Assembly: GCA_964594835.1 (NCBI GenBank)
Contig: CAZQNA010000015.1
Location: 1,210-29,545 of the forward strand
Length of the DNA: 28,336 nt
From: an uncultured Nitrososphaerota archaeon
GTDB lineage: Archaea; Korarchaeota; Korarchaeia; Korarchaeales; Korarchaeaceae
Direction: 5' to 3'
The notes under the pieces: model-generated
Told to the model about the DNA's origin: nothing
Databases searched by the model: none
What the model saw: only the letters and a program-made list of their open reading frames with translations
In this document: positions 4,233-28,336 of the stretch, piece by piece
Layout of the letters: each line of letters opens with the position of its first letter
Position numbering within the stretch: position 1 is the stretch's first letter
Made by a program: the position numbers and the translations under genes

Positions 4233-4240
4233 ACTCGCTC

Positions 4241-5599
4241 TCACCTCCACCTGCCCATCCTGACGAACTCCCCGTGGCCGGGGCGCCCGACGGGCTCGCC
4301 GTCCTGGGCAACGACCTCTCCTCGCACGGTGACCAGGACGGGCCAGCCCCTGACGACGATCCCCTCGTAGGGCGTCCAGCCCACCTTGTAGTGGAGCCTG
4401 TCGGCCTTGATCTCGACCTCCAGGTTCTGGTCGTAGATGACGAGGTCCGCGTCGGACCCGGGGGCCAGCTCGCCCTTCCTGGGGTACATCCCGAACGCCT
4501 TGGCCGGGTTGGCGCAGAGGGCCGCGCAGAGCACGGTGGGCGGTATCCCCCACCTGTGGAGGCCCTCGCTCATGGACACCGGGAGCAGGGTCTCCACCCC
4601 GGGGATGCCCCCCCAGGCCTCCCAGATGTCGTCCCAGCCGACCTCCTTCTCCTCCCTGGTGCCGGGGGCGTGGTCCGTGGCTATCATGTCCACGCCGCCG
4701 GTGAGGAGGGCCTCCCAGAGCCCCCTGACGTCCTCCTTGGTCCTGAGGGGCGGCGTCATCTTGAGGTAGGGCCCCCACCTCTTGACGTCGTCCTTCGTGA
4801 AGACCAGGTAGTGCACGCACGTCTCCGACGTCACCCTGAGCCCCCTGGCCTTGGCGTGGGCCGCCAGCTCGGCCCCCCTGGCCGTGTTCAGGTGGGCAAC
4901 GTGGTAGTGCCCGCCCACCCGGGCGACGGACTCGATGATCCGGGCCACCGCGACCACCTCGGCCTCCGGGGGTCGAGAGTCGTGGTGGGCCAGGGGATCC
5001 TTCCTCCCCTCGACGTCCCTGACCCTGTGAACCCCCCTCTCTATCACCTGATCGTCCTCCGAGTGGACCACGATCCTTCCTCCCAGCTCCGAAGCCCTGA
5101 TCAGGAGCTCCTCTATGTAGTCGTAGCCGGCCAGGAAGGGCTTGGTGGTGAACGCCTTGAAGGAGAGGATGCCCATCTCCGCCAGCTCCGGCATCCTCCT
5201 CAGGTGCTCCTCGCTGGTCATCATGCCCGCGTGCAGGCTGAAGTCGACGAGGGACTCCCTCTCTCCGACCTCTATCTTCTGCCTGGCCAGCTCCGGCATG
5301 ACGGTGAGCACCAGGGGCATGTCTATGAGCAGGGTAACGCCGCCGGCCGCGGCGGCCTCACTCCCGCTCCTCCAGTCCTCCCTGTGCGTGTAGTCGGGGT
5401 CGTAGATGTGCGCGTGCGCGTCTATGGCACCGGGCATCAGGATCTTCCCGTCGGCGTCCACGACCTGGGAGGCCTCCGGCAGGTGGGGGTCCTTTGCCAG
5501 GGCCACGATCTTCCCGTCCTGGACGGCGACGCCAGCTCCCTCGACCGTGAACTGGGAGGTCAGGACCCGGGCGCCCCTGACCACGAGGTCGACCGTCAT
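4241..5599 (-). CDS. Cyclic amidohydrolase, allantoinase/dihydropyrimidinase (hydantoinase)/dihydroorotase family
   Basis: MPGAIDAHAH (HxH), GSEAAAAGGVT..IDMP, SFKAF (carboxylated Lys), VHSED, HVAH, ETCVHYL, KMTPPLR, ATDHAP, AWGGIPGVE, KGELAPGSDADLVI. Confidence 0.9.
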   Translation of the reverse strand: MTVDLVVRGARVLTSQFTVEGAGVAVQDGKIVALAKDPHLPEASQVVDADGKILMPGAIDAHAHIYDPDYTHREDWRSGSEAAAAGGVTLLIDMPLVLTVMPELARQKIEVGERESLVDFSLHAGMMTSEEHLRRMPELAEMGILSFKAFTTKPFLAGYDYIEELLIRASELGGRIVVHSEDDQVIERGVHRVRDVEGRKDPLAHHDSRPPEAEVVAVARIIESVARVGGHYHVAHLNTARGAELAAHAKARGLRVTSETCVHYLVFTKDDVKRWGPYLKMTPPLRTKEDVRGLWEALLTGGVDMIATDHAPGTREEKEVGWDDIWEAWGGIPGVETLLPVSMSEGLHRWGIPPTVLCAALCANPAKAFGMYPRKGELAPGSDADLVIYDQNLEVEIKADRLHYKVGWTPYEGIVVRGWPVLVTVRGEVVAQDGEPVGRPGHGEFVRMGRWR

Positions 5600-7563
5600 T
5601 CGGCCTCTCCTACCCCTCCCGCGCCCTCGGGGGGCTGCTCAGTCCTGGGAAGCTTTCCGAGGCGCTCCAGCTCGTCGGCGACGTCCTCCAGGCCGAGATC
5701 CACGAGCTTCTCCCTCGTGGGCAGTCCGGTCTCGAGGTCCCAACCCCTCAGGGTGTAGTACTCGTCCAGCATCACGTCCAGGTTGACGACCTGCCCCTTC
5801 GCCGGTCCGGCCGGCATGGGCTCCTTGGTGAACCTCTCCGGGAGGGTGTCGTCCCTCCTCGTTATCCCGAGCCTGACGTTGAACGCCCTCTTGAGGTTGT
5901 TGATCCTCTCGCCGATCAGCCACATCTTCCTGACGTCCTTGAAGGCCTCCTCTCCCGTGACCAGGTAGGCTAGCTTGGCGAAGTCGTCCATCCAGAATAT
6001 CGGCGGCCAGCCGACCGTGTACCAGCACACGATGAGCGAGTCCCTCACGGCGTAGGCGTCCTCGTGCATCTTCACGGCCAGCCCCTTGTAGGCCTCGGAG
6101 TACCCGTTGACCACCCCCTCCACCTTGTCCTCTCCGAACCTCTCCCTGGCCGTGTCCCAGTAGGCGAGCTGGTCCACGGTCACGAGGGACCTCATGTGGT
6201 CAGCGCCCCTGGCCGACACCGCATGCGTCAGGCCTGCGGACCTGTGGGCCCTGCCATCCTGCCCAGAGATCTCCAGGCCCTTGACGTGCATCGCGTACTT
6301 CTCGGAGCCCCTGCCGATCCTCTGGGCCATGGCCCTGACTCCCTCGGCCATGAGGTCCCCGAAGCCCCTCCTGAACACGATCATGTCCAGGGCCTCGAGC
6401 ATGGCGTGGTAGTCTCCCCACCTGAGCTCCAAGCCCCCAGTGTCTCCCTTGGTCAGTATGCCCCTCTCAAAGAGCTCCATCACGAAGGACATCGTCTTCC
6501 CGGCGGATATCACGTCGACGCCGTACCTGTTGCACAGCAGGTTGAGCCTGAGGATCGCGGGCAGGCTGTCGCACATGGCGCTGGAGCCGAAGGCGAAGAC
6601 GGCCTCGTACTCGGGGCCGCCGGTGAAGGTGCCGGCGAACTCTCCGGCCCTCACGAGATGCTTCTTCTTGCAGGCCGTGCTGCAGCCGAAGCAGGACTTC
6701 GTGGCCACCCAGTACTTCTCCCTGAGCGTCTCCGCGTCTATTTGGTGGTAGCGGTCGAACACCCCCACCCAGTGGTTCTTGGTGGGGAGCTCGCCGATGG
6801 CCTGCTTCACCGCCACCAGCATGGGGGTGCCGTACCTCCTCAGCTCCATGGCCTGATCGGACTCCAAGACCCTCCTGTGCCCCTCCAGGGCGAACTCGTA
6901 GAACTCGTCCGGGTGGGCCACCTCGACAGCCCCGAACCCCCTCACCGCTATCGCCTTGAGCCTCTTAGAGCCCATGACGGCTCCCATGCCGGTCCTGCCG
7001 AACGCGTCGTGGTAGTTGGTGATTATGGCCGCGTACTTCACCAGGTTCTCGCCGGCCTGCCCGATGCTGGCCACCTGCACCGCCGGGTCCCCGAGCTCCT
7101 CCCTGATCGCCTCCGTGGTCTCGTACGTGTCCTTGCCCCAGAGGTGACCGGCGTCCCTGATCTCCACCTTCCCGTCGTAGATGGAGAGGTAGACCGGCTT
7201 GCTCGAGGCGCCCTCCACCACGATCATGTCGTAGCCCGCGTACTTGATCTCAGGCCCGAAGTGACCGCCGGAGTGGGACTCGCCCCATATGCCGGTCAGG
7301 GGGGACTTGGACACCGCGACGACCCTGCCGGACGTGTGCCAGATGGTGCCCGTGACGGGCCCCGTGGCTATGATCAGCTTATTGTCCGGGCCCAGCGGGT
7401 TAACGCCGGGACCGACCTCCTCCCAGAGGAGCCTGGCCGCCATGCCGTCGCCGCCGAGGTACTTGCGGGCCCACTCCTTGGGCGTGTCGACCTCCCTGAC
7501 CCTGCCAGAGCTGAGGTCGACCCGCAGTATCTTACCAGCGTACCCCTTGTACCGGAGGCGCAA
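5596..7563 (-). CDS. aor: Tungsten-dependent aldehyde:ferredoxin oxidoreductase family protein (paralog 2), 655 aa
   Basis: GYAGKILRVDLS, KSPLTG, GRTGMGAVMGSKRLKAI, CFGCSTAC, GPEYE, GVDVISAG, RGADH, SLIVC, DDTLPERF. TTG start; the stop overlaps the next ATG (ATGA). Confidence 0.94.
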   Translation of the reverse strand: MRLRYKGYAGKILRVDLSSGRVREVDTPKEWARKYLGGDGMAARLLWEEVGPGVNPLGPDNKLIIATGPVTGTIWHTSGRVVAVSKSPLTGIWGESHSGGHFGPEIKYAGYDMIVVEGASSKPVYLSIYDGKVEIRDAGHLWGKDTYETTEAIREELGDPAVQVASIGQAGENLVKYAAIITNYHDAFGRTGMGAVMGSKRLKAIAVRGFGAVEVAHPDEFYEFALEGHRRVLESDQAMELRRYGTPMLVAVKQAIGELPTKNHWVGVFDRYHQIDAETLREKYWVATKSCFGCSTACKKKHLVRAGEFAGTFTGGPEYEAVFAFGSSAMCDSLPAILRLNLLCNRYGVDVISAGKTMSFVMELFERGILTKGDTGGLELRWGDYHAMLEALDMIVFRRGFGDLMAEGVRAMAQRIGRGSEKYAMHVKGLEISGQDGRAHRSAGLTHAVSARGADHMRSLVTVDQLAYWDTARERFGEDKVEGVVNGYSEAYKGLAVKMHEDAYAVRDSLIVCWYTVGWPPIFWMDDFAKLAYLVTGEEAFKDVRKMWLIGERINNLKRAFNVRLGITRRDDTLPERFTKEPMPAGPAKGQVVNLDVMLDEYYTLRGWDLETGLPTREKLVDLGLEDVADELERLGKLPRTEQPPEGAGGVGEAE

Positions 7564-9311: not shown

Positions 9312-11243
9312 TCACCTCCACCTCCCAGCCAGCTCGCCGAGGCCGAGCTCCCTGAGCGTCTCGTCCTTGGGGACGCCCGTCTCCTTGTCTATGCCCGCGG
9401 CCTCGTAGTAGTCGTCCAGCATCTCGTCGAGCCTGCAAACGTGGCCCTTCGCCGGGCCCGTGGGCATGGGTTCCTTCAGGAACCTCTCTGGGAGCGTGTC
9501 GTCCTTCCTCCTGAGCCCCTCCCTCACGTTGAACATCCTCCTAAGGATGGCTATCCTCTTGGCTATCCTCCTGATCTCGTTGGGGTCGCCGAACTCCGCT
9601 ATGCCTGTGGCCGCGGCGGCGGCCTTGGCCATGTCGGGGTAGTAGAAGACGGGCGGCCAGCCGACCTCGTACCAGCATATGATCAGCGAGTTGCCCATGG
9701 CGTAGAGCATCTCCAGGTCCCAGACGAGCCAGCCCTTGTACCTGGTGGACTGCGGGTCGACGAGGTCCCTCACCTTGTCGGCCCCGTACCTCTCGGCGGC
9801 CACCTGCTCGTAGCCCCTCTCCTCGAGGCAGGACAGCGAGGTTAGGTGGTCGGCCCCCCTGGCGGCCGTCGCGTGCGTCAGCCCGGAGGACTGGTGGGCC
9901 CTGCCGTCCTGAGCCGAGATCTCGTTGCCCTTCACGTGCATGGCGAACCTCTCGGTCCCCCGGCCAATGATCTCGGAGGCCCTCTTGCTCCCCTCCGCTA
10001 TCACGTTCCCGAATCCCTCCCTGAAGGCCGTCTTCCTCACGAGCTCGACCATGACCTCGGCGTTGCCCCAGCTCAGGTCCAAGCCCCCGGTGTCCTCCCT
10101 CGTCAGTAGGCCGTGCTCCCAGCTCTCCATCGCCCACGCTATCGTCATGCCCAGGGAGATGGAGTCCATCCCGTAGAGGTCGGCCAGGTGGTTCGCGTAG
10201 AAGACCGCCTCGACATCCTCGACTAGGGTGGAGGATCCGAAGGACACCAGGGCCTCGTACTCGGGCCCCTTGTACACGCCCGCGTAGGGCTCCTTCCTCG
10301 ACCTCACGAAGTACTTGCACTGGACCAGGCAGCCGAAGCAGCTGGCCTGCTTGACCCTGAACTCCTCCCTGATCCTCTCCCCTCCTATCAGGTGGGCCTT
10401 CTCCCAGTACCCGGTCCAGTGGTTCTTCACGGGCATCCTCCCCATGGAGTTGATGGCCTCAACCAGGTTCGGGGTGCCGTACTTCGTCAGGGTCTCCCTC
10501 AGCGAGTCGCCCCAGTCAACGAGGAGCTTCCTGTACGCCTCGTCGACCACCTCCATGAAGAGCTCGGGCTTCGCTACCCGCACCCCCTTGCTCCCCCTCA
10601 CCGCTATGGCCTTGAGCCTCTTGGAGCCCATCACGGCGCCCATGCCGGTCCTGCCGGCCGCGTTGCCCATGTCGTTGATGATGGAGGCGAACCTCACGAG
10701 GTTCTCCCCCGCGGGCCCTATGGCGGCCACCTTGAAGGTCTCGTCGCCGAGCTCCTCCCTCACCTCTTGGATGGTCTCGAAGGTCGTCTTCCCGCCGTAG
10801 TACCTGCCGTCCCTCTCCTCACCCCAGAGGTGGCTGGCGTCCCTGATCTCGACGAGGTCGTCGTCGATGACCAGATAGACGGGCCTCTCGGACCTGCCCT
10901 GTATCACCAGGAAGTCGTAGCCGGCGAACTTCAGCTCGGGCCCGAAGAAGCCCCCGGCGTTGGCGTGTCCCCATATCCCGGTGAGGGGGGACTTCGCGTT
11001 CACCTGATACCTCCCGGCGGCGGGGAACATGGTCCCGGTCAGCGGGCCGGTGGAGATCACCAGGCGGTTCTCCGGACCGAGGGGATCCGTCCTCTCGTCC
11101 ACCTCGTCCCACAGTATCTTGACCGCGAACCCCAGCCCACCCAGGTAGTCCCTGATCAGCTCCCTGGGAGTCTCCTGGATCAGGATCTTCCCGGTTGAGA
11201 GGTCGACTCGGATGTACCTACCCGCGTACCCTCCCAGCTCCAT
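9312..11243 (-). CDS. aor: Tungsten-dependent aldehyde:ferredoxin oxidoreductase family protein (paralog 1), 643 aa
   Basis: GYAGRYIRVDLS, AKSPLTG, GGFFGPELKFAGYD, AGRTGMGAVMGSKRLKAI, CFGCLVQC, GPEYE, YGMDSISLG, RGADH, SLIIC, RKDDTLPERF. Confidence 0.94.
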   Translation of the reverse strand: MELGGYAGRYIRVDLSTGKILIQETPRELIRDYLGGLGFAVKILWDEVDERTDPLGPENRLVISTGPLTGTMFPAAGRYQVNAKSPLTGIWGHANAGGFFGPELKFAGYDFLVIQGRSERPVYLVIDDDLVEIRDASHLWGEERDGRYYGGKTTFETIQEVREELGDETFKVAAIGPAGENLVRFASIINDMGNAAGRTGMGAVMGSKRLKAIAVRGSKGVRVAKPELFMEVVDEAYRKLLVDWGDSLRETLTKYGTPNLVEAINSMGRMPVKNHWTGYWEKAHLIGGERIREEFRVKQASCFGCLVQCKYFVRSRKEPYAGVYKGPEYEALVSFGSSTLVEDVEAVFYANHLADLYGMDSISLGMTIAWAMESWEHGLLTREDTGGLDLSWGNAEVMVELVRKTAFREGFGNVIAEGSKRASEIIGRGTERFAMHVKGNEISAQDGRAHQSSGLTHATAARGADHLTSLSCLEERGYEQVAAERYGADKVRDLVDPQSTRYKGWLVWDLEMLYAMGNSLIICWYEVGWPPVFYYPDMAKAAAAATGIAEFGDPNEIRRIAKRIAILRRMFNVREGLRRKDDTLPERFLKEPMPTGPAKGHVCRLDEMLDDYYEAAGIDKETGVPKDETLRELGLGELAGRWR

Positions 11244-11249
11244 CCGCCA

Positions 11250-11744
11250 TCACCCCTGGGGGACTATCAGCGAGATCAGCCTGGCGGACCTCTGAGCCCC
11301 GTCGACCTTCTTCTGGTAGCCAACCTGGTCGGCCCTGACCCACCTGATCGCCCCGGTGGGGCACCTCCTGGCGCACTGCGGGTCTCCTCCACAGAGGTCG
11401 CACTTCACGATCTGGAAGGTCACTAGGTCGACCTGGATGCCCCCGAAGGGGCAGGCGTTCAGGCACTGCTTGCACTCGATGCACTTCGACTTGTCTAGGA
11501 AGACGGCGTTTCCGAACTGGTACAGGGCGCCCGTCGGGCAGGCCTCGACGCAGAGAGGCTTCCCGCAGTGCTGACATGTCATGGGTATGAAGACTCCCTC
11601 GAAGTCGTTCCGCAGGACCTGGATGTACGACCTCCGGGGGTTGAACTCACCGTAGTGGTGGAAGGAGCACGCCTCCTCGCAGATCCTGCACCCGGTGCAC
11701 TTGTCCGGGTCGATTATCAAGAGGTTCTGAACCCCCTCAACCAT
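11250..11744 (-). CDS. 4Fe-4S dicluster electron-transfer subunit, partner of AOR paralog 1
   Basis: CTGCRICEEAC, CQHCGKPLCVEACP, CIECKQCLNACP, KCDLCGGDPQCARRCP. Clear paralog of 7567..8070 (shared CSF.HY and WVRADQ). Confidence 0.92.
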   Translation of the reverse strand: MVEGVQNLLIIDPDKCTGCRICEEACSFHHYGEFNPRRSYIQVLRNDFEGVFIPMTCQHCGKPLCVEACPTGALYQFGNAVFLDKSKCIECKQCLNACPFGGIQVDLVTFQIVKCDLCGGDPQCARRCPTGAIRWVRADQVGYQKKVDGAQRSARLISLIVPQG

Positions 11745-11793
11745 GCGATCACCGCCAGCCCTGAACGGGCCAAAGCTGAATCTTTCCGAGAGA

Positions 11794-11806
11794 CCAAATA
11801 AATCCT
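11794..11806 (-). promoter_or_regulatory. Candidate TATA box for the AOR operon
   Basis: Minus strand GGATTTATTTGG about 55 bp upstream of ATG 11744. Confidence 0.4.
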
Positions 11807-11921
11807 GGGGAGCGAACTTGAACCAAGGGCGTTATTCCGCCGGGATAGATCGGTCTGGCGGCCCTCTCAGGGGCCCGAGACGTGCCTCGGGAAGGCAGGC
11901 CAGCGTGAGTGCGGATCTGCC

Positions 11922-11937
11922 GAAAAAAGGTGGAAGG
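11922..11937 (-). terminator. Archaeal oligo-T terminator after the BMP gene
   Basis: Minus strand CCTTCCACCTTTTTTC about 10-25 nt after the stop at 11946. Confidence 0.5.
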
Positions 11938-11945
11938 TGAGTGGG

Positions 11946-13244
11946 TCAGCCCCCGAGGGCAGGACCCACCACGTTGTCGACCCACCACTGCATTGACCAG
12001 AGCTCGTCGTGTCCGAGCCTCTGGCCGGCCATGACCCTGAGGGTGCCCTTGTCGTCGTATATCGGCCCGCTGAAGGGATCGAACACCTCGTCGTTGACGA
12101 AGACCCACTCGCTTCCCGTCCAGACGGCGCCCATCTGGATGAGCCTGGCCATCACCAGCGTGTAGACGTCGGGGTTCTCAATCAGCGTGCCGTTGGGCAG
12201 CTGGATGGTCTCCTGCACCCTGACGGACTTGAGCTCGCTCACGAACTTCGGGTTGACCGGCTGGTTGAAGGTGCACCCCAGCTCGACGGAGCCCTCCTTC
12301 AGCTTCCACCAGTAGTCGACGTTCTGCAGGTTCTGGGTGTTGTACGACCCGGAGTAGATCTTGCTGAGTATGTCATCGTATATGACCTCCCAGTGCACCA
12401 GCTGTCCGCTGACGCAGACGTCGGGCCCGTAGTCGAGCATCGGGCTGTAGTGACCGAAGGCGAGGACCCTCTCACCCCTCTCGAAGTGCTCCTGGGCGAC
12501 CTGGACGACGGTAGGCGAGTCCTCCGTGAAGGCGAGGACGTCGATCCCCTCGGAGATCAGGGCCTCAGCGGCCTGCCTGGCCTTGGTCGGATCGTACCAG
12601 GCGCCTATCTCCCTGACGTAGACCTTGCAGTCGGGGCAGACCTCCTTGACCCCCAGGGCGAAGGCGTTGATGTGCCTCACCACCTCGGGGATGAGGTGGG
12701 CGGCGACGTAGCCGATCTTCTTACTCTGGGTCAGAGCCCCGGCCATCAGGCCGTTGAGGTAGTAGACCTGGTAGAAGTCGGCGAAGTAGGTCCCCATGTT
12801 AGGGGCCCGCTTGTATCCGGAGCAGTGCCAGAAGATCTTGTCGGGGTGCTTCTGAGCCTCCTCCAGCGTCGGGTCCATGAAGTCGAAGCTTGTGGTGAAG
12901 ACCACGTCGTAGCCCTGGCCGAGCAGCTGCTCGATCACGCCGGCGCACTCCGCCGGGGCCACGGACTCGACGTGGGTGGTCTCCAGCCATTCGTACTTCG
13001 CGTCCACCATCTCCTTGGCAGCGTGGTGAGCGTAGGTCCAGCCGATGTCACCGATCGGACCTACGTAGATCCAGGCTGCCTTGATCTTCTTCGCGGGAGG
13101 AGCCTCGCACGGAGGGCAGGTTCCTGGCGCCGCGGTCTCACAGGGAGGGCACTCGGCCGGCCCCCTCGGCGCCGCCAAGTATCCTATGGCGGCCCCGACT
13201 ATGATGGCGATGATAACTAGGGCGGCCCACTGAGATGAGCTCAT
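11946..13244 (-). CDS. BMP/PnrA-family ABC transporter substrate-binding protein (nucleoside/purine), N-terminal membrane anchor
   Basis: KAAWIYVGPIGDIGWTYAH, VFTTSFDFMD, HCSGYK, YLNGLMAG, KIGYVAAH.IPEVVRHINAFALG, WYDP.KARQAAEALI. Hydrophobic N-terminus followed by a Cys/Pro linker. Confidence 0.92.
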   Translation of the reverse strand: MSSSQWAALVIIAIIVGAAIGYLAAPRGPAECPPCETAAPGTCPPCEAPPAKKIKAAWIYVGPIGDIGWTYAHHAAKEMVDAKYEWLETTHVESVAPAECAGVIEQLLGQGYDVVFTTSFDFMDPTLEEAQKHPDKIFWHCSGYKRAPNMGTYFADFYQVYYLNGLMAGALTQSKKIGYVAAHLIPEVVRHINAFALGVKEVCPDCKVYVREIGAWYDPTKARQAAEALISEGIDVLAFTEDSPTVVQVAQEHFERGERVLAFGHYSPMLDYGPDVCVSGQLVHWEVIYDDILSKIYSGSYNTQNLQNVDYWWKLKEGSVELGCTFNQPVNPKFVSELKSVRVQETIQLPNGTLIENPDVYTLVMARLIQMGAVWTGSEWVFVNDEVFDPFSGPIYDDKGTLRVMAGQRLGHDELWSMQWWVDNVVGPALGG

Positions 13245-13294
13245 GGCTATCCCCCCATGGAGAGCGTGGGTAAGGTGATTGCCGATTTGATGCC

Positions 13295-13308
13295 CATAAA
13301 TTTTTCCT
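13295..13308 (-). promoter_or_regulatory. BRE + TATA promoter of the BMP gene
   Basis: Minus strand AGGAAAAATTTATG: purine-rich BRE directly followed by TTTA, about 50 bp upstream of ATG 13244. Confidence 0.6.
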
Positions 13309-13519
13309 GAAGGTCGAAAAAGTAACCGGATCGTCCGGGCCCTCCGGTCGTACAGAACGGGGCTTTTAATCCGCCGAGTGGTGAGAGGCGGCGAGTCGAT
13401 TGAAACCTATCGGTGGATCGAGTTCCAGTCGGACAGGCTGCCGGGGCAGCCGCGCTGCGTGAACCGGCTGGCGGATCCAGCCCGGGCGCGGAGGAAAAGG
13501 GTTGTGGGGGCCGGGCGGC

Positions 13520-14458
13520 CTACTTCTCTCCCCTGACGTAGGGCACACCCAGGGCCGCGGGCGCCCCCATCCTCCTCCTCATTGTCTCGGTGGCCCCGGC
13601 GGTAAGCACTATGATGGTCAGGAGGTAGGGGACGCCGTTGAGGAGCCACTGGCTGTACCCGTAGGCCTGGAGTGTGTACCCGCCGGCCTCCACGACCCCA
13701 AACAGGTAGGCCCCGAATATGGCCCTCAGGGGATTCCAGAGGGCGAATATCGTGAGGGCCAGCGCTATCCACCCTCTCCCGGCCGTCATGTTCTCTATCC
13801 AGGCGGGGCTGTAGGCGACCGAGAGGTAGGCCCCGGCCATGCCGGCGAGGGCCCCTCCTAGGGCCGTGCAGGCGTACCTCACCAGGTAGACGTTTATTCC
13901 AAGGGCGTCGGCGGCGGCGGGGTTCTCCCCAGTCGACCTGATCACTATCCCCACCTTCGTCTTGAAGAGGACGAACCAGAGGACGACCGCCAGGCCTATG
14001 CTCAGGTAGAAGAGCGGCTCCTGGTCGAACAGCGCCTTCCCCACGACTGGTATCCTGACGAGCCCCTCCGATAGGGGCTTGGGGAGGAACCTGGACTTGA
14101 CCGGGAGCTGATAGCCGACGTACCCCCTCCCTATCACGCTGCTGAGTCCGAGGCCGAACATGGTCAGGGCGAGGCCGGAGACGACCTGATTGCCCCTCAG
14201 GTGGATGCTGATCACGCCGTGAATGAGGGACATAGCTATCCCGACGACGACCGCCACCGCCACGCCCAGCCAGGGGTTGCCGGTGCTTAGGGCGGTGATG
14301 AAGGCGGAGACGGCGCCCATTATCATCATCCCCTCCACCCCTAGGTTCAGTATCCCAGACCGCTCGGCGTATATCTCGCCGAGGGATGCGAGCAGGAGGG
14401 GAGTGGCGGACCTGAAGCCCACCCAGAGGATGTTCTCCACCACTGAGACATCCACCAT
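13520..14458 (-). CDS. Nucleoside-type ABC transporter permease
   Basis: ATPLLLASLGEIYAERSGILNLGVEGMM, NQVVSGLAL, RSTGENPAAADALGINV, MTAGRGWIALAL, PYLLTIIVL, PAALGVPY. Confidence 0.92.
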   Translation of the reverse strand: MVDVSVVENILWVGFRSATPLLLASLGEIYAERSGILNLGVEGMMIMGAVSAFITALSTGNPWLGVAVAVVVGIAMSLIHGVISIHLRGNQVVSGLALTMFGLGLSSVIGRGYVGYQLPVKSRFLPKPLSEGLVRIPVVGKALFDQEPLFYLSIGLAVVLWFVLFKTKVGIVIRSTGENPAAADALGINVYLVRYACTALGGALAGMAGAYLSVAYSPAWIENMTAGRGWIALALTIFALWNPLRAIFGAYLFGVVEAGGYTLQAYGYSQWLLNGVPYLLTIIVLTAGATETMRRRMGAPAALGVPYVRGEK

Positions 14459-14461
14459 CGC

Positions 14462-15538
14462 TCACCTCCTTATCTGGACCCTGTACCTGAGGAGGAAGTC
14501 GCCGGCGAGGACGAAGAAGAGTATGGCCCCGTTGAACATGTCCACCACGCCGATTGGGAGCTTGTAGTCGATCATGATGTACTGTCCCCCGACCAGAAGG
14601 CCCCCGAAGAGGAAGTTGGCTATCAGAAGGCCGATGGGGTTCACCCCCCCGAGCCACGCCGTGATTATGCCGGTGAACCCGTAGCCCGAGAGGAACTCGG
14701 GGGTGAACCTGTGCTGTATCCCCGCAAACTCCCCGACCCCGGCGAGCCCAGCCAGCCCCCCGCTGATCACCATGGCCAGCGTCACCGTCCTCAGGTAGCT
14801 TATCCCCGCCGCCCTGGCGGCCTCAGGGTTGTCCCCGACGACCTTCATCTCGTAACCAGCGCAGGTGTAGTTGAGGAAGGCGTACACCCCCACGGCGGCT
14901 GCGATCGAGAGGATCAGCGTGGGCCAGTGGATCCTCGTCTCGCCTATCAAGGGCAGCCAGGCGTTCTTCGATATTATCTCGGTGTGAGCGAATCCGCCGT
15001 AAGTAAGCTGTCCCACCCTCTCCCTCGCCTTCCAGGGCCCGTGTATGAGGTGCTGGAAGATCCAGAAGATGACGTAGTAGAGCATCAGGGTCGATATCAC
15101 ATCGTTGACGTTCAGCTTCGCCTTCAGAACGGCCGGAGGTATCCCCCACGCCGCGCCGGCCAGGAAGCCGACCGCGAACATCGAGGGAATGAGCAGACCA
15201 GGAGGCGCGTTTGGAAATGTTCTCGCCACGACGTAGGCGGCCATGGCTCCGAAGAGCAGCTGTCCCTCCGCCCCTATGTTCCAGAAGCCCGTCCTGAACA
15301 CGAGGGCCAGCCCCGAGCTGACCAGCAGGAGAGGCATCATCCTCACTATCGTCTCGGTCAGGCCGACCTCGGTGCCGAAGGCGTTGAAGAAGATGGACCT
15401 GTAGACGTCGACGGGGTTGACCCCGTAGGCGTAGAATATTGCGGCGACGGCCAGGAGGGCCAGGGCCACCGAACCAACGCGGACCGCGAGGGCGAACCTC
15501 CTCGAGACGACGACCCTCTTCCGAACGACTATCCTCAT
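14462..15538 (-). CDS. Nucleoside-type ABC transporter permease
   Basis: FRTGFWNIGAEGQ, VNDVISTLML, GYEMKVVGDNPEAARAAGI, SGGLAGLAG, GYGFTGI; multiple TM helices. Confidence 0.92.
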   Translation of the reverse strand: MRIVVRKRVVVSRRFALAVRVGSVALALLAVAAIFYAYGVNPVDVYRSIFFNAFGTEVGLTETIVRMMPLLLVSSGLALVFRTGFWNIGAEGQLLFGAMAAYVVARTFPNAPPGLLIPSMFAVGFLAGAAWGIPPAVLKAKLNVNDVISTLMLYYVIFWIFQHLIHGPWKARERVGQLTYGGFAHTEIISKNAWLPLIGETRIHWPTLILSIAAAVGVYAFLNYTCAGYEMKVVGDNPEAARAAGISYLRTVTLAMVISGGLAGLAGVGEFAGIQHRFTPEFLSGYGFTGIITAWLGGVNPIGLLIANFLFGGLLVGGQYIMIDYKLPIGVVDMFNGAILFFVLAGDFLLRYRVQIRR

Positions 15539-23896: not shown

Positions 23897-25854
23897 CACT
23901 CCGGCCAGCCCAGTGCCCTCCTCTTCTCCAGGATGTGAGCCATGATGGCCTCGGCAGCCTTCACCGGGTCGGGCTCTACTAAGAACTTCCCTCCCACAAG
24001 GTCCTCCGCCTTGTCGGTGAGTATCTCAACGACCTTCTTGCTCCCAAGCACCGGAGGAACCGTCCCCAGGTGCACCAGCAGTCCGGACGCCACGAAGTAG
24101 GAGCCGATGGAGACAGCCTTCTCGCTCATCCACTCTGGCGCAGACCCCGCTGCCGGGAGGTCAGGTATGTCAACTCCAAGGTGCTCCGCCAGCGCCGCCA
24201 GGGCTATCAGCATCCTGGAGCAGTCTACGCAGCTTCCCATGTGCAGGGCTGGCGGGATGCCGAGGGCCTTGCAGACCTCCTTCAGCCCAGGTCCGGCAAG
24301 CTCGGCGGCCTCTGGGAGGAGCAGGCCGTGCTTTCCCATGGCGATGGCCCAGCAGCCGGTGCCCACAATGAGGACATCCCTCTTAATCAGCTCCTTCGTC
24401 AGAGTAACGTGGCTGTGGTCGTGCTTGACCTTTGGGTTGACGCAGCCCACGATTCCGACGATCCCCTTTATCTTCCCCGTCCTCAGAGCCTCAGCGAGGG
24501 GCTCGAGCGTGCCTCCAAGAGCCTCTAGTATGGCCTCAACGCTGAATCCGGCCACGAGTTCTGACTTCTCCTTCGGTATCATTACCCTGGCGGGATTTCT
24601 ATTCTTGAAGTTCTCGACAGCAATCCTCACGATCTTCCTCGCGGTCTCGATGGCGTTGGCCTTGTCGAACTCGATGTGTATTGCGCCGGGGATGTGGGCC
24701 TTAGGCTCCGTCGTTATCACCTTGGTGTGGTAGCAGGAGGCAACGTCCACGATCGCCGGCATGATGCACTGGTAGTCCACAATGACGGCCTCGAGAGCGC
24801 CGGTGGCTATGGCGAGCTCCTGCTGGAGCATGTTGCCAGCTATGGGGACGCCAAGCCTCATGAGCACCTCGTTACCGGTGCAGCACATCCCGACGACGTT
24901 TATCCCGCCCGTCGCACCGAGGTCCTTTGCCATCTGAACCAGCTCGGGGTCGCTGGCGACCTCGGCGATCTTCATGGACAGAACAGGGTTGTGGCCGTGC
25001 ACCAGTATGTTGACCGCGTCCTCTCTCAGCACCCCGAGGTTCGCCACAGCTCTGAGCGGTTTCGGCGTCCCGAACATGACGTCGCTGAGGAGCGTGGCCA
25101 TCATGGAACCGCTCCATCCGTCCGCGAGGGCGCACCTGAGCCCCTGGGCAATGAGCGTGAGCGGGTCCGCGTCGACGCCCATGTGCGTTCTGTGCATTAT
25201 CTCCGTGATCTCTCTGTCAATCGCGCGGGGCATTATCCCGACCTTATTCCATACCTCCTTCCGCTTCTTGGGGGCGTAGGCCTCCACCAGTCTGAGGGGC
25301 TCCTCTCCAGGCTTGCCGAACTCCCACTCCATTATCTCGGCAACTTCCTTCGCTAAGTCGTTCAGCTCCCTGCCCTCAACCTCCAGCCCGAGGGCGCGGG
25401 CTATCCCCCTCAGCTTCTCCGGGTCTTTGATCTCGTAATCCTTGGCCCATCCGTCAGGTATCCCCTTGAAGACTTCCACAATGTCCCTGGCGTGATCGCT
25501 GTGAGCGGCGGCCCCTGCGGCGAGCATCCGCATAAGGTTCCTTGCCACTATCGTGTCGGCAGTGGCCCCGCAGACTCCCCTCTGGGGGCCGTATCCGAAC
25601 GGATCGATTCTGCACGGTCCCATGTTGCAGTTCCTGCAGCATACCCCCAGAAGGCCAAACCCGCACTGCGGCTGCTGGGCCAGGTACCTGTGCCAGGCTG
25701 TCTCGGCGCCGTCCATCTCGGCCTTCTCTAGGAGCTGTGAGACTGTGGGGTCAATGGAGACGGTCTCGTAGAACTCCCTCCTCGCGCTCCTCATGAGCCT
25801 CTCGTAGATCCTCTCGGAACCGGGCTTGTCTCCCTCAACCCCCGCTGCAGTCAT
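23896..25854 (-). CDS. cooS: Anaerobic Ni,Fe carbon monoxide dehydrogenase catalytic subunit
   Basis: D/B clusters QCGFGLLGVCCRNCNMGPCRI and GVCGA; AAHSDH; C-cluster ligands HGHNP, GMCCTGNE, DYQCIMP, VGCVNP, TGCW, HMGSCVD; EWMSEKA. All canonical ligands are present. Confidence 0.96.
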   Translation of the reverse strand: MTAAGVEGDKPGSERIYERLMRSARREFYETVSIDPTVSQLLEKAEMDGAETAWHRYLAQQPQCGFGLLGVCCRNCNMGPCRIDPFGYGPQRGVCGATADTIVARNLMRMLAAGAAAHSDHARDIVEVFKGIPDGWAKDYEIKDPEKLRGIARALGLEVEGRELNDLAKEVAEIMEWEFGKPGEEPLRLVEAYAPKKRKEVWNKVGIMPRAIDREITEIMHRTHMGVDADPLTLIAQGLRCALADGWSGSMMATLLSDVMFGTPKPLRAVANLGVLREDAVNILVHGHNPVLSMKIAEVASDPELVQMAKDLGATGGINVVGMCCTGNEVLMRLGVPIAGNMLQQELAIATGALEAVIVDYQCIMPAIVDVASCYHTKVITTEPKAHIPGAIHIEFDKANAIETARKIVRIAVENFKNRNPARVMIPKEKSELVAGFSVEAILEALGGTLEPLAEALRTGKIKGIVGIVGCVNPKVKHDHSHVTLTKELIKRDVLIVGTGCWAIAMGKHGLLLPEAAELAGPGLKEVCKALGIPPALHMGSCVDCSRMLIALAALAEHLGVDIPDLPAAGSAPEWMSEKAVSIGSYFVASGLLVHLGTVPPVLGSKKVVEILTDKAEDLVGGKFLVEPDPVKAAEAIMAHILEKRRALGWPE

Positions 25855-26474
25855 TCAGACCACCTCACGGTCTCATACATTTCCCTGAGAGATGCGAGGG
25901 GGGACTTAGGAGCCTTCTCAACGGGCCTGGCGTATACCACAGCCGCCTCCGCGAGACCCAGCACCATATCCGCGGCCCTTCTGATCTTCTCCCGGTCAAG
26001 GATGTCCTCCGCCCTGCCGTATCTGAGGGCACCAGTTGGGCAGGCCTCGACGCACGCTGGCGGGAGTCCAGCCCTGAACCTATCCACGCAGTGATCACAC
26101 TTCACCACCTTCCTCCTGAAGTCGTAGGTCGGGTGGCCGAAGGGACAAGCGAGAAGGCACGTCCGGCAGCCTATGCACTTCTCGAGATCAGATACGACGA
26201 AGCCCTCCTCAGTCCGGTGCATGGCCCCAGTTGGGCAGGCCTCGATGCACGGGGCCGGATCACAGTGCATGCACCTCATGGGAACGTAGACGCCGGCGGC
26301 CGGAACTACCTTCGTCCTCGGCTTCGGGGCGGGGTCCTCGAAGACGGCCTTGTACAGCTCCCTTGAAGAGGAGTGCTCAACCGCACAAGCTATCTCGCAG
26401 CTCCTGCACCCCACGCATCTCTCGGGATCAACGTAGATGAGGTATTCCAGGTAGCTCGGAGGGACGGTTGTCAT
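25851..26474 (-). CDS. cooF: CODH-associated 4x[4Fe-4S] electron-transfer protein CooF
   Basis: CVGCRSCEIACAVEH, CMHCDPAPCIEACP, CIGCRTCLLACPFG, KCDHC...PPACVEACP; its stop overlaps the cooS start. Confidence 0.9.
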   Translation of the reverse strand: MTTVPPSYLEYLIYVDPERCVGCRSCEIACAVEHSSSRELYKAVFEDPAPKPRTKVVPAAGVYVPMRCMHCDPAPCIEACPTGAMHRTEEGFVVSDLEKCIGCRTCLLACPFGHPTYDFRRKVVKCDHCVDRFRAGLPPACVEACPTGALRYGRAEDILDREKIRRAADMVLGLAEAAVVYARPVEKAPKSPLASLREMYETVRWSE

Positions 26475-26504
26475 TCATCCCCCCAGGTGAACTCCGAACC
26501 CGCT

Positions 26505-26538
26505 CAAGAAAAATTCTCCGATTTAGGTAAAAAATTTG
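26505..26538 (-). promoter_or_regulatory. Promoter/operator region of the coo-hdr operon
   Basis: Minus strand CAAATTTTTTACCTAAATCGGAGAATTTTTCTTG: AT-rich, TATA-like TTTTTA about 55 bp upstream of cooF, with a motif shared with the corQ upstream region. Confidence 0.5.
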
Positions 26539-26539
26539 A

Positions 26540-27697
26540 CTAACTTCGTTCCTTTAACATGAGGTTAAAACGGACGATCCCGAGTCCGGCCTTGTAGTCG
26601 CGGTAGGACCGAACCAGCTCGAGAGCCTCTGGCGTGAGAACCACACCTCCTCGACCGGTGCCGCCTTTCCAAGACTCAAAGAGCCTGAACCCCAACGCGG
26701 ACTCCATCCTCTTGAGCCTCCTGTATACCGCAGGGGGAGACAGTCCAAGGCTCCTCGCGACGGCGCTAAGGCTTCCCGTGGACTCCAGCAGCGATAGCAC
26801 GTCCAAGTCATCTTCATCCAGTATCAGGCCATCCTTGGTTACGAGTCTGAGGGAGGGGATGAACGAATAGACCGATGATCGCTCTATCAGCTCGCATCCA
26901 GATCCGAGGATGCTACGGAGCTCGTCGGGTCCATAAGCGGGATTGAGTTGACCCAGCATCGGACACTTCCCGACCAGGCCGGATGGATCCATGTAGATTA
27001 TCCTGCACTCCCTCTGGCACTTGGGACCTGAGAGGAGGTACACGGGGAAGTCTCGGTGGAAGGTGACCCGCATCTCATATATGCCCATGAGCTCACCGAA
27101 GGGATCGGAGACGTCGTAACCCCGGGCCTGCATGGCCTTAACGACATCCGTGGGACACTTGGTAACTGGGCAGAAGACCGGCGGCGAGATCCACACTTGA
27201 AGCCCCCATGATCTGCCGATGTTAATCATCTCCACGAGCTCATCGTCGTTCACGCCCGGGACATAGATGGACATCAGCCTGATTGATTTACCAGCCATGA
27301 GGAGCTTCCTGACAAATCTCTTGGCTCGCTTGAGATTTGATGTCGTGTAGCAGAACAGAAATATTTCGTCAGCCATCAAGAGCCTCTCGGGCGACCTCTC
27401 GCGAGACCCGGCTGCGGCGGGAACGAACACGTGGGATTTAAGTCCCCTGTCGGCCGACGCCGAGATGAGTTCTTCCACCTTTGGGTTGGCCAATGGGTTT
27501 GGGCACGTGTAGTAAACGTCCGGCCTCAAACCGGACCCAATCAGAGAGTCCAAGAAGGCCTCGAGTCTACTAGGCTCGAGGAAAGTCTGAGGAGGAACCC
27601 TCTCCTCAGCGCGCGGGCAGTAGGAGCAGGCAGAGTCGCAACCCTCTACGGGCCTGACAACCGCTATCGCTTCGGCTCTACCTGCCAGTAGGCTCAA
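26540..27697 (-). CDS. corR: CorR-like transcriptional regulator: N-terminal radical-SAM-like Fe-S domain plus C-terminal ModE/LysR-type winged HTH
   Basis: CDSACSYC (CxxxCxxC) near the N-terminus; KCQRECRIIYMDPSGLVGKCP (SPASM/twitch-like); C-terminal TGSLSAVARSLGLSPPAVYRRLKRMESALGFRLFESWKGGTGRGGVVLTPEA (ModE/LysR HTH). A V4R gene plus LysR-HTH gene next to cooFSC matches the CorQR arrangement of Thermococcus onnurineus; the symbol rests on synteny. Confidence 0.72.
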   Translation of the reverse strand: MSLLAGRAEAIAVVRPVEGCDSACSYCPRAEERVPPQTFLEPSRLEAFLDSLIGSGLRPDVYYTCPNPLANPKVEELISASADRGLKSHVFVPAAAGSRERSPERLLMADEIFLFCYTTSNLKRAKRFVRKLLMAGKSIRLMSIYVPGVNDDELVEMINIGRSWGLQVWISPPVFCPVTKCPTDVVKAMQARGYDVSDPFGELMGIYEMRVTFHRDFPVYLLSGPKCQRECRIIYMDPSGLVGKCPMLGQLNPAYGPDELRSILGSGCELIERSSVYSFIPSLRLVTKDGLILDEDDLDVLSLLESTGSLSAVARSLGLSPPAVYRRLKRMESALGFRLFESWKGGTGRGGVVLTPEALELVRSYRDYKAGLGIVRFNLMLKERS

Positions 27698-28245
27698 CGG
27701 CTGAGCCCTCCCTCTAGAATCTCTGCCTCAAATACGCAGACATCCTTCCCGGTGGCCTGGCACTCCCTCTCGATCATGGGGCCTATCCTAATGCCGGTGA
27801 TGTCCTCCACGAGGGCGGCTAATAGCCCGGCCGTGAAGTGACAGACCGGAGAGTCGGACCTCCTTCCTCTGGCCTCGAATGAGTTTCTTACCTTCACCAC
27901 GACTCTTTCCTTTTCTAGACTAATTGACAAGATGTCGCCAAATCCGAGTGATCTGTAAACTCTCTTGGCCGCATCTAGCATCTCGCCGAGAGACAGCTTC
28001 TCCTTGGTCGAGACTATGCCCTTGGAGTCGTGGACCTTCATCATCCTGTAGGCGGAGTAGTACAGGACCGGCCTGAGGCCCTTCTCGCCTACGAAGACGG
28101 AGAGTCCGGCCATGAAGTCCGCCCACCACTTCGTGGACATCAGAAACATGTCCTTCAGCACGACCCTGCCGAAGTGGGGGATGTCGACCTCGGCCCGGAG
28201 CACCCCTTTTCTCTCGGGGTCCTCTTCGATGACCCGAAGGCTCAT
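27694..28245 (-). CDS. corQ: V4R (4-vinyl reductase) domain protein, CorQ-like sensor
   Basis: LGFGDI...VRNSFEA...PVCHFTAGLLAALVE...ERECQATGKDVCVFE is the V4R Cys/Glu metal site; its stop overlaps the corR start. Confidence 0.78.
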   Translation of the reverse strand: MSLRVIEEDPERKGVLRAEVDIPHFGRVVLKDMFLMSTKWWADFMAGLSVFVGEKGLRPVLYYSAYRMMKVHDSKGIVSTKEKLSLGEMLDAAKRVYRSLGFGDILSISLEKERVVVKVRNSFEARGRRSDSPVCHFTAGLLAALVEDITGIRIGPMIERECQATGKDVCVFEAEILEGGLSR

Positions 28246-28336
28246 CTCCGTATCGGTAAAAATCCGAATGAGGGATCAAAATAACGATTTATCGGACAGT
28301 AAAAACGGCACTGACCCGCGGCAGTGAGCCATGTGA

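Follow-up and report, generated by a model that had tools for sequence, protein, structure and literature searches.

In the window (the whole stretch of DNA analysed, 28,336 nucleotides), the reverse strand encodes at 26540-27697 a CorR-type regulator, the DNA-binding member of the archaeal CorQ/CorR pair that controls carbon monoxide dehydrogenase (CODH) genes. The open reading frame is present, and the cysteine motifs singled out in the initial annotation are all real and lie where it put them. A V4R gene lies upstream and cooF-cooS-cooC directly downstream, in a gene order that is conserved at other loci. The locus comprises the following features:

26540..27697, minus strand: corR, a 385-aa regulator with a TTG start (from the open reading frame and its translation)
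27694..28245, minus strand: corQ, a 183-aa V4R protein with C135, E159, C162 and C170 (Pfam V4R, 53.2 bits)
23093..26474, minus strand: cooF, cooS and cooC, presumably the genes under control of the regulator (from Pfam and synteny)
26475..26539, minus strand: the corR-cooF intergenic region, putative site of the CODH promoter and presumed target of the regulator

The TTG start of corR overlaps the stop codon of corQ (ttga), and a TTG start stands at the matching place in six of the ten unbroken full-length corR orthologues from the same phylum, with starts picked by script. (A split corR copy in L071 has a TTG start as well.) In the intergenic DNA ahead of cooF, AAATCGGAGAA precedes an A/T-rich box. 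Such a box seems to be shared by cooF promoters, in which it is preceded by (A/T)AT(T)CGGA(A/G); it could be an operator, or merely a BRE/TATA promoter.

The CorR family and its linkage to CODH

The family considered here comprises 49 sequences, with members of 339-392 aa, and the window CorR, at 385 aa, lies within the ~370-385 aa expected of a CorR protein; among the matches listed, at least five close relatives were returned for the single protein query and at least six for the family alignment. In 16 of the 17 loci examined, corQ lies beside corR, and the order corQ-corR-cooF-cooS is kept in 10 of 11 same-phylum loci and in all six Thermococcus-type metagenome loci. CooS is encoded in each of the 13 genomes in which CorR is full-length, and none of the 23 without CooS has a full-length CorR, genomes of one phylum being non-independent observations. 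Full-length CorR was not found in six CooS-positive genomes of the phylum, two of which have a CooS match that is cut off by or abuts a contig end. One genome (G037, a bin with ~6% contamination) has a CorR-like gene on a contig with cooFSC and hydrogenase genes, cooFSC lying ~10 kb off, and gave no CorQ-like match at E<=1e-3. This combination fits a CorR with a sensor of its own.

The sequence of CorR has diverged much faster than that of the enzyme whose genes it accompanies: between genera, identity is 37-44% for CorR, compared with 78-81% for CooS. The most conserved cysteines of the CorR sensor domain (C27, C65, C231, C245 and C268) persist in spite of this.

The predicted fold of CorR

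Within the protein, the following features can be delimited:

27173..27682, minus strand: predicted six-unit beta/alpha radical-SAM core, residues ~6-175 (AF2 pLDDT 88; Z 19.5-19.8 to MoaA)
27617..27640, minus strand: Cx3Cx2C, the radical-SAM cluster motif (CDSACSYC, residues 20-27), with C20, C24 and C27, aligned to the Cx3Cx2C of MoaA
27494..27505, minus strand: C65-P-N-P, where strand beta2 ends, opposite the G-G-E-P of MoaA in the hhalign register
27152..27175, minus strand: FCPVTKCP (C176, C181), a clade-specific cysteine pair, with Cys at each position in only nine of 49 sequences
26882..27106, minus strand: Twitch-like extension, residues ~198-272, with C227, C231, C245 and C268
26543..26842, minus strand: ModE/LysR-type winged helix-turn-helix, residues ~286-385 (277-385 at its widest)

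The proposal that the N-terminal domain is a radical-SAM scaffold is upheld by profile and structure comparisons alike. Residues 16-84 score 32.4 bits against the Pfam Radical_SAM model, above its cut-off of 29.5 (E 1.3e-7), and the NCBIfam MoaA model, TIGR02666, matches residues 19-82 weakly (20.1 bits against a cut-off of 284.05). In other members of the family, Radical_SAM reaches 17.7-19.4 bits in three of the nine tested and gives no match in the other six. In the AF2 model of CorR (pLDDT 88, pTM 0.73), residues 6-282 are predicted with high confidence to form a radical-SAM barrel plus a Twitch-like extension. MoaA is the top Foldseek match of this model (E 1.4e-9) and superposes on it in VIA-align over 265 residues with Z 19.8 and an rmsd of 3.7. 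A search of 48,161 chains, made independently of Foldseek, also ranks MoaA first (Z 19.5, with the runner-up at 16.4), and the best 11 matches are all radical-SAM enzymes. For a Thermococcus-type relative, P0010, the model (pLDDT 87.1) has a Z of 19.2 to MoaA. In hhalign, the CorR family pairs with the MoaA of the same genome at a probability of 95.5%, and with a 25-sequence MoaA profile at 98.0% (E 2.1e-13, 255 columns); among the 22 radical-SAM ORFs of the source genome that were compared, MoaA is the best match. A phmmer search of PDB sequences with the N-domain alone gave a chance-level match only. On balance, the evidence supports a prediction that the first ~280 residues of CorR form a partial barrel of the radical-SAM kind, extended by a Twitch-type region and nearest to MoaA. 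The protein is not the cell's own MoaA, since a separate MoaA is encoded in the same genome, as it is in 42 of 43 genomes of the phylum.

Set beside MoaA (PDB 1tv7, 2fb2), CorR has the same fold over ~265 residues (Z 19.5-19.8) and shares, in register, the Cx3Cx2C motif, a GVNDDE stretch (PGVNDDE in CorR opposite RGVNDDE in MoaA) and two of the three auxiliary-cluster cysteines. It differs in having CP(N/D)P, across the family, where MoaA has GGEP, in that the first auxiliary cysteine is shifted, or replaced by C268, and in being fused to a DNA-binding domain. In the ESM Atlas, the look-alikes of CorR fall in radical-SAM clusters (score 0.96), which is a lead only.

The C-terminal domain is, as initially described, a winged helix of the ModE/LysR type with no effector domain attached. 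Pfam HTH_1 matches residues 297-358 at 47.9 bits, and the NCBIfam ModE repressor domain (TIGR00637) matches residues 293-371 at 44.8 bits, below its cut-off of 98.5. E. coli ModE (1b9m) superposes on the CorR model over 100 residues with Z 13.0 and an rmsd of 2.8, the putative ModE 2ijl is matched at E 0.0046, and the DNA-binding domains of the LysR family reach Z 10-12. The likeness extends to a glycine-rich wing (KGGTGRGGVVLT). The domain order, however, is different. In ModE the helix-turn-helix is N-terminal and followed by two Mop domains, and LysR-type regulators combine an N-terminal HTH_1 with a LysR substrate-binding domain, whereas in CorR the HTH_1 is C-terminal and Pfam finds neither a Mop nor a LysR substrate-binding domain at E<=1.

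Of the eleven cysteines of CorR, C20, C24 and C27 (site I) stand at the radical-SAM motif and are present in 39, 37 and 42 of the 49 family sequences, respectively; three more have a shifted Cx2Cx3C form. The GGE motif, which forms hydrogen bonds to the two AdoMet groups, amino and carboxyl, that chelate the unique iron (PMC6231123, in the part available), is absent. Its place is taken by C-P-N-P, in agreement with the initial annotation, which had noted YYTCPNPL where GGEP should be; the hhalign register and the 49-sequence family both show a conserved Cys-Pro-x-Pro, with C65 (codon 27503-27505) kept in 42 sequences and P66 and P68 in 37 each. The loss of GGE alone is no proof that SAM binding has been lost, since Gly-Gly is missing at that position from 22 of the 48 radical-SAM enzymes with solved structures, according to an excerpt of PMC10267522. 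Judged from the alignment register, on which its reach to the cluster rests, C65 may be a fourth ligand of site I. The whole N-terminal motif and C65 are both missing from six representatives (P0027, P0029, P0035, P0037, P0039 and P0042), and site I is therefore not essential to the core function of the family. The joint loss was probably a single evolutionary event. (P0027, one of these six, gave no match in a locus scan.)

The second group of cysteines (site II) had been likened to a SPASM/twitch region, and only the latter half of that description holds. A beta-hairpin is predicted at 207-223, ahead of C227/C231, C245 and C268, and the structures matched by the CorR model include MoaA, SkfB, BtrN and SpeY. 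In the accessible part of PMC6231123, MoaA is classed as a Twitch enzyme, and the open iron of its Twitch cluster is said to bind GTP. SPASM (PF13186), on the other hand, has no match to CorR in Pfam at E<=1, the hhalign probability against the genome's SPASM-type protein is 7%, and CorR has a single conserved auxiliary cysteine group instead of the seven-Cys, two-cluster motif of SPASM. The motifs KCQREC...GKCP and SGC supply C227, C231 and C245, and C268, respectively. In hhalign, C231 falls opposite the second cysteine of the MoaA Cx2Cx13C and C245 opposite the third, and C227 is shifted by one position (Cx3C) relative to the first.

Cysteine is found at C227, C231, C245 and C268 in 19, 47, 46 and 45 of the 49 sequences. 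The top-ranking positions of the sensor domain are C231 and P246 (47 each), C245 and G136 (46), C268 (45), and C27 and C65 (42), and by this alignment the best-conserved site of CorR is the auxiliary site and not the radical-SAM site. In Thermococcus-type CorR, site II has three cysteines (C231, C245 and C268) and no C227. The initial annotation had allowed for either an open iron or a fourth cysteine: a fourth cysteine is found at both sites of the window CorR (C20/C24/C27/C65 and C227/C231/C245/C268), and with four at each, no open iron is evident.

A proposed sensing role for CorR

What would such a protein do? The explanation favored here, with a probability of roughly 0.5 as a whole, is that CorR is a retired MoaA-type input module in the CorQ/CorR activator of the nickel CODH operon. 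Its ~280 N-terminal residues would derive from a Twitch-bearing radical-SAM enzyme of the MoaA type, which would have been catalytically retired, losing SAM cleavage, and would now receive a signal. At site I, C20, C24 and C27 would have gained a fourth ligand, C65, at the former SAM-anchoring GGE, closing the unique iron and excluding SAM. At site II, C231 and C245, taken over from the MoaA auxiliary cluster, would bind a second [4Fe-4S] cluster together with C268 and, in the window clade, C227. That the N-terminal domain is an iron-sulfur input module independent of SAM seems rather probable. The state of the clusters (their redox state, their presence or a bound ligand) would be passed on to the C-terminal ModE-type winged helix, presumably binding the cooF promoter as a dimer, and CorQ, the translationally coupled V4R protein, would act as a co-sensor or modulator.

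CorR may sense either CO or redox state. Redox is preferred, if only tentatively: the signal would be either anoxia or electron pressure, the latter exerted by the very low-potential electrons that CO oxidation releases. Direct binding of CO is ranked second. It would require a reduced [4Fe-4S] cluster in CorR to bind CO at one of its irons and thereby switch DNA binding without heme, a kind of CO sensing for which we know of no biological precedent and for which none was found in the literature searched. This mechanism is unlikely, and the same holds for the wider formulation in which CO, or its extremely low-potential electrons, acts directly on a [4Fe-4S] cluster in the CorR scaffold to throw the ModE-type switch. 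Direct binding would nevertheless suit a regulator so strictly tied to CODH genes, with an auxiliary site derived from a MoaA cluster whose open iron binds substrate (PMC6231123, as far as available). It would also suit the three-cysteine site II of the Thermococcus-type members and the CorQ-less gene on the CODH contig of G037. The difficulty lies in the window CorR itself, in which four cysteines at both sites leave no free iron evident.

Alternatively, the V4R partner could be the only sensor, the cysteines of CorR being structural metal ligands or relics, and CorR serving only to tether the complex to DNA. CorQ has a plausible site for this, since C135, E159, C162 and C170 (C...E-x2-C-x7-C) do not vary among the 15 aligned sequences, and it is similar to the V4R portion of MsvR, a redox regulator (NF053755, E 2.8e-7, below the cut-off). 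The near-constant adjacency of corQ and corR and the dispensability of site I in one CorR clade point the same way. So does the published view, as far as the available text goes: PMC6557876 has the V4R domain replace heme in CO sensing, and three papers citing the original CorQR study attribute CO sensing to the V4R protein, or imply it, and not to CorR. Even so, a sole role for CorQ is doubtful, because conservation in this fast-evolving domain peaks at the auxiliary cysteines, whereas a relic should decay, and because G037 has the CorR-like gene with no CorQ-like match. Least probable by far is a bifunctional CorR, a still-active radical-SAM enzyme with a DNA-binding domain attached. Most members keep Cx3Cx2C and, by prediction, the whole barrel, and Radical_SAM scores above its cut-off in the window clade. 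(Many active radical-SAM enzymes also do without a canonical GGE, as part of PMC10267522 relates.) Against this stand the conserved cysteine at the SAM-anchoring position, the free variation of the residue between the second and third cysteines, which is aromatic in the canonical motif, the clade that has lost site I, the Pfam scores far below cut-off in other members, and the fast divergence of the sequence. Nor, as we read the hhalign register, does there seem to be any arginine after the CxxC opposite the GTP-binding arginines of MoaA, those mutated in PDB 2fb2.

CorR among known regulators

To our knowledge, anaerobic CO oxidation has just three types of regulator, and CorQ/CorR is the only archaeal one among them. 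In iron-sulfur transcription factors such as FNR, IscR/NsrR/RirA, SoxR and WhiB, cluster state governs DNA binding, as is proposed for CorR, but we know of none with a radical-SAM/Twitch scaffold or with two clusters of the CorR kind. A retired MoaA-type module would, if true, bring a novel type of sensor domain to these factors and be a clear example of a radical-SAM fold retained for a non-catalytic job. If, as is less likely, CO or its electrons act directly on the cluster, CorR would also be the first of its kind among heme-free gas sensors, a radical-making enzyme fold recycled as the sensor of a transcription factor. The literature searched (main texts, with the original CorQR paper outside its scope) held no radical-SAM or iron-sulfur description of CorR. 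By contrast with CorR, in which Pfam finds no such domain, the sensors CooA and RcoM, which activate CODH genes in response to CO (PMC6557876, PMC13077300, in the parts available), are heme-based, with CRP/FNR or PAS-LytTR architectures. A MoaA-derived scaffold makes the question of CorQ/CorR sensing testable, where the citing papers, in the portions available, merely point to the V4R partner: it names as candidate ligands C65, at the old SAM site, and C231/C245/C268, at the old site of the substrate-binding cluster. With it comes a testable idea of how archaea could control the use of CO without heme.

The CorQ/CorR system of Thermococcus onnurineus NA1 is the one reportedly described by Kim et al. 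in 2015 (Appl Environ Microbiol 81:1708). In T. onnurineus, activation of the CODH cluster is credited to CorQR (PMC4791640, PMC6557876, PMC13077300), and overexpression of corQR raised H2 production from CO, according to a table in PMC4791640, all of these being available in part. Knowledge of the sensor could aid the engineering of strains that make H2 from CO. As in the window, a V4R protein and a LysR/ModE-type helix-turn-helix protein are encoded there directly upstream of cooF-cooS-cooC. The comparison of the CorR proteins was made through a T. barophilus-type representative, P0010, whose 90% cluster contains Thermococcus barophilus proteins and whose loci keep the same gene order; it matches residues 11-369 of the window CorR at E 1.9e-31 with 29% identity, and overall identity between the two types is 25-29%. 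The window clade differs in its extra C227 at site II and in the C176/C181 pair, and the window operon differs in running on past the coo genes into HdrA/MvhD/HdrC/HdrB-like genes.

The corR gene and its neighbourhood

The corR gene encodes a protein with 11 cysteines in all, and every motif that the initial annotation listed for it lies where it had been placed.

Features of the corR locus
26540-27697, minus strand: corR ORF, 385 residues
27617-27640, minus strand: CDSACSYC, residues 20-27, the radical-SAM cluster motif Cx3Cx2C
27503-27505, minus strand: the Cys of YYTCPNPL, residue 65
Within corR: FCPVTKCP, with C176 and C181
Within corR: KCQREC...GKCP, with C227, C231 and C245
Within corR: SGC, with C268
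27694-28245, minus strand: V4R protein gene (corQ), upstream of corR; Pfam V4R 53.2 bits
18722-26474, minus strand: CODH and Hdr-like stretch, from cooF to a CooT-like ORF

The corR start codon is a TTG that shares bases with the corQ stop codon (ttga), and TTG was the automatically assigned start at the equivalent place in 6 of 10 unbroken full-length same-phylum orthologues. Pfam assigns Radical_SAM to residues 16-84 (32.4 bits; cut-off 29.5) and HTH_1 to residues 297-358 (47.9 bits); the NCBIfam ModE repressor domain matches residues 293-371 at 44.8 bits, under its cut-off, and NCBIfam MoaA matches residues 19-82 faintly. Elsewhere in the source genome, a 385-aa ORF (locus L002, G000:C2, 1369-2526) matches CorR only through a ModE-type HTH, which lies near its N-terminus, its C-terminal part being unrelated to CorR. 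It is a separate regulator and was rejected as a CorR paralogue. The only other match there is a weak third (L003, E 7.4e-4).

On the 3' side of corR lie cooF, cooS and cooC, then HdrA-, MvhD/FlpD-, HdrC- and HdrB-like (CCG) genes and the CooT-like ORF. No energy-converting hydrogenase follows cooF-cooS-cooC in the window; the Hdr-like genes stand there instead. The arrangement suggests a coupling between CO oxidation and a heterodisulfide-reductase-type, possibly electron-bifurcating, module. The order corQ-corR-cooF-cooS is kept in 10 of 11 fetched loci, and Hdr-like genes come next in all eight related loci with a long enough contig. All six Thermococcus-type metagenome loci (69-92% identical to P0010, the Thermococcus-type CorR representative) have V4R-corR-cooF-cooS, one corQ being cut by a contig end and Pfam V4R having been checked for one locus. 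P0010 itself, whose 90% cluster contains Thermococcus barophilus proteins, aligns with window CorR over residues 11-369 (E 1.9e-31). Given this gene order and alignment, the window gene is identified as the CorR of a CorQ/CorR activator pair, a system taken here as papers citing it describe it (PMC4791640, PMC6557876 and PMC13077300). The system was already known, and window CorR adds a member.

The regions upstream of cooF were compared using window 26475-26539 and 28246-28336 and the matching parts of L069-L078 and L080-L085. Eight of the 10 printed loci of the window's phylum have (A/T)AT(T)CGGA(A/G) right before an A/T-rich box, and all four printed Thermococcus-type loci share CCGAACACG; such an element might serve as an operator or be no more than BRE/TATA. 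Farther along the window, three aldehyde:ferredoxin oxidoreductase family genes (2298-4820, 5596-7563 and 9312-11243, minus strand) are interspersed with an ABC transporter set, a polyferredoxin, a dihydroorotate-dehydrogenase-like Fe-S protein and an amidohydrolase.

Relationship of the input domain to MoaA

The AlphaFold2 model of window CorR, built from a 34-sequence alignment (pLDDT 88, pTM 0.73), shows six predicted beta/alpha units (residues 11-171) as well as an extension rich in beta structure, two further helices and the winged helix. Structure comparison of this model supports the radical-SAM scaffold proposed earlier: MoaA ranked first in Foldseek (E 1.4e-9), in VIA-align (Z 19.8, 265 residues aligned, rmsd 3.7, model residues 6-281), where SuiB, BlsE and PqqE came next (Z 16.3-16.7), and in a Foldseek-independent search of 48,161 chains (Z 19.5; runner-up 16.4), whose top 11 rows were all radical-SAM enzymes. 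The proposed C-terminal ModE/LysR winged helix is likewise seen in the model, residues 277-382 matching E. coli ModE (Z 13.0, 100 aligned, rmsd 2.8) and LysR-type DNA-binding domains giving Z of about 10-12, in line with the HTH_1 hit. Since P0010 models alike (pLDDT 87.1; MoaA Z 19.2; ModE Z 13.3), the predicted MoaA-like scaffold is a trait of the whole CorR family, including the genetically studied clade.

Profile alignment leads to the same enzyme. Hhalign matched the CorR family to the source genome's own MoaA with a probability of 95.5%, the best among 22 comparable radical-SAM ORFs there (25 loci, three without a usable ORF), and the N-domain profile to 25 MoaA sequences of the phylum at 98.0% (E 2.1e-13, 255 columns). 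Both alignments have the same register: Cx3Cx2C over Cx3Cx2C, T-C65-P-N-P over T-G-G-E-P, PGVNDDE over RGVNDDE, and C231 and C245 over the second and third Cys of MoaA Cx2Cx13C, with C227 one position ahead of the first auxiliary Cys. A cysteine at the GGEP place, as first noticed, thus appears correct. Of the "SPASM/twitch-like" reading, the Twitch form holds, because the auxiliary [4Fe-4S] cluster of MoaA, whose open iron takes GTP, sits in the Twitch domain (PMC6231123); a SPASM domain is not supported. Because a genuine MoaA is encoded elsewhere in 42 of 43 same-phylum genomes, the source genome included, CorR is a diverged paralogue; the possibility that it serves as the cell's MoaA was rejected. 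We conclude that the input domain of CorR derives from MoaA, as a radical-SAM/Twitch scaffold in which two cluster sites are likely.

Cysteine sites and the likely signal

Occurrence of Cys at each position among 49 non-identical family members (34 representatives together with loci, one duplicate dropped)
Position 20: 39/49
Position 24: 37/49, three more with a shifted Cx2Cx3C form
Position 27: 42/49
Position 65: 42/49
Positions 176 and 181: 9/49 each
Position 227: 19/49
Position 231: 47/49
Position 245: 46/49
Position 268: 45/49

The expected conservation of the cysteines thus holds for C231, C245 and C268, which with P246 and G136 are the most conserved positions of residues 1-290, but not throughout for site I: six representatives (P0027, P0029, P0035, P0037, P0039 and P0042) have neither the N-terminal motif nor C65, yet keep C227, C231, C245 and C268. 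This joint presence or absence would fit one cluster with four ligands but, as the two were probably lost in one event, it is only suggestive. Between genera CorR is only 37-44% identical, compared with 78-81% for CooS, and the sensor-domain cysteines are kept nonetheless.

Is the input domain still an enzyme? At site I, a cysteine would stand where SAM was formerly anchored; the GGE motif forms hydrogen bonds to those amino and carboxyl groups of AdoMet that lie 2.2-2.3 Å from the unique iron (PMC6231123). Site II would coincide with the substrate-binding place of MoaA. A cysteine conserved at the GGE position, free variation at the residue that separates the second Cys from the third, the complete disappearance of site I from one clade and the fast divergence all point to a domain that is an enzyme no longer. 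They do not prove it, since Gly-Gly is absent from that position in 22 of 48 solved radical-SAM enzymes, according to PMC10267522.

The initial annotation envisaged an open iron or a fourth cysteine. The fourth cysteine is there (C65), but no free iron is evident in window CorR, which has four cysteines at each site; this argues for redox or cluster-integrity sensing over ligand binding at a free iron. With three cysteines, site II of Thermococcus-type CorR could take a ligand, for example CO. CorQ may be a second input, given its invariant C...E-x2-C-x7-C site (15/15 sequences) and its weak likeness to the V4R portion of MsvR, a redox regulator. In a single genome, G037 (98% complete, 6% contaminated), a 345-aa CorR-like gene (29% identical; L079, L111; G037:C70, ~11674-25247) stands at the far end of a cooF-cooS-cooC and Mbh/Ech-type [NiFe] hydrogenase cluster, encoded on the opposite strand and adjoining Pyr_redox_2 and CooF-like genes. 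No CorQ-like match was found in that genome, a hint that CorR can sense without CorQ.

Distribution and annotation of CorR

The closest public relatives are MAG records labelled Thermoproteota archaeon (CorR 87-88% identical). Full-length CorR occurs in 13 of 43 same-phylum genomes (counting G009, whose copy has an in-frame stop) and CooS in 20; all 13 have CooS (E<=1e-100), and full-length CorR is absent from all 23 genomes that lack CooS. Being kin, these genomes do not give independent counts. Among six CooS-positive genomes without full-length CorR, G015 has a CorR fragment at a contig end just upstream of CooS, and in two more the CooS match is cut off or abuts a contig end. In G009, of the same genus, an in-frame TAA divides corR (L071, G009:C11, 9350-10533) into stretches of 76 and 312 codons. 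This marks a pseudogene or else an error of assembly, and that contig is also the source of the deposited 312-aa protein P0006.

In the literature searched, to which the original CorQR paper did not belong, CorR was nowhere found to be presented as an iron-sulfur protein or as derived from radical-SAM/MoaA. Late-start gene models and the failure of Pfam to find Radical_SAM outside the window clade (a close homologue of P0010 scores 18.1 bits only) may explain this silence. Several deposited Thermococcus models in the P0010 cluster start 32 residues late (340 versus 372 aa), losing Cx3Cx2C, and one 340-aa model is named "periplasmic molybdate-binding protein"; the starts are likely mis-called and the name misleading.
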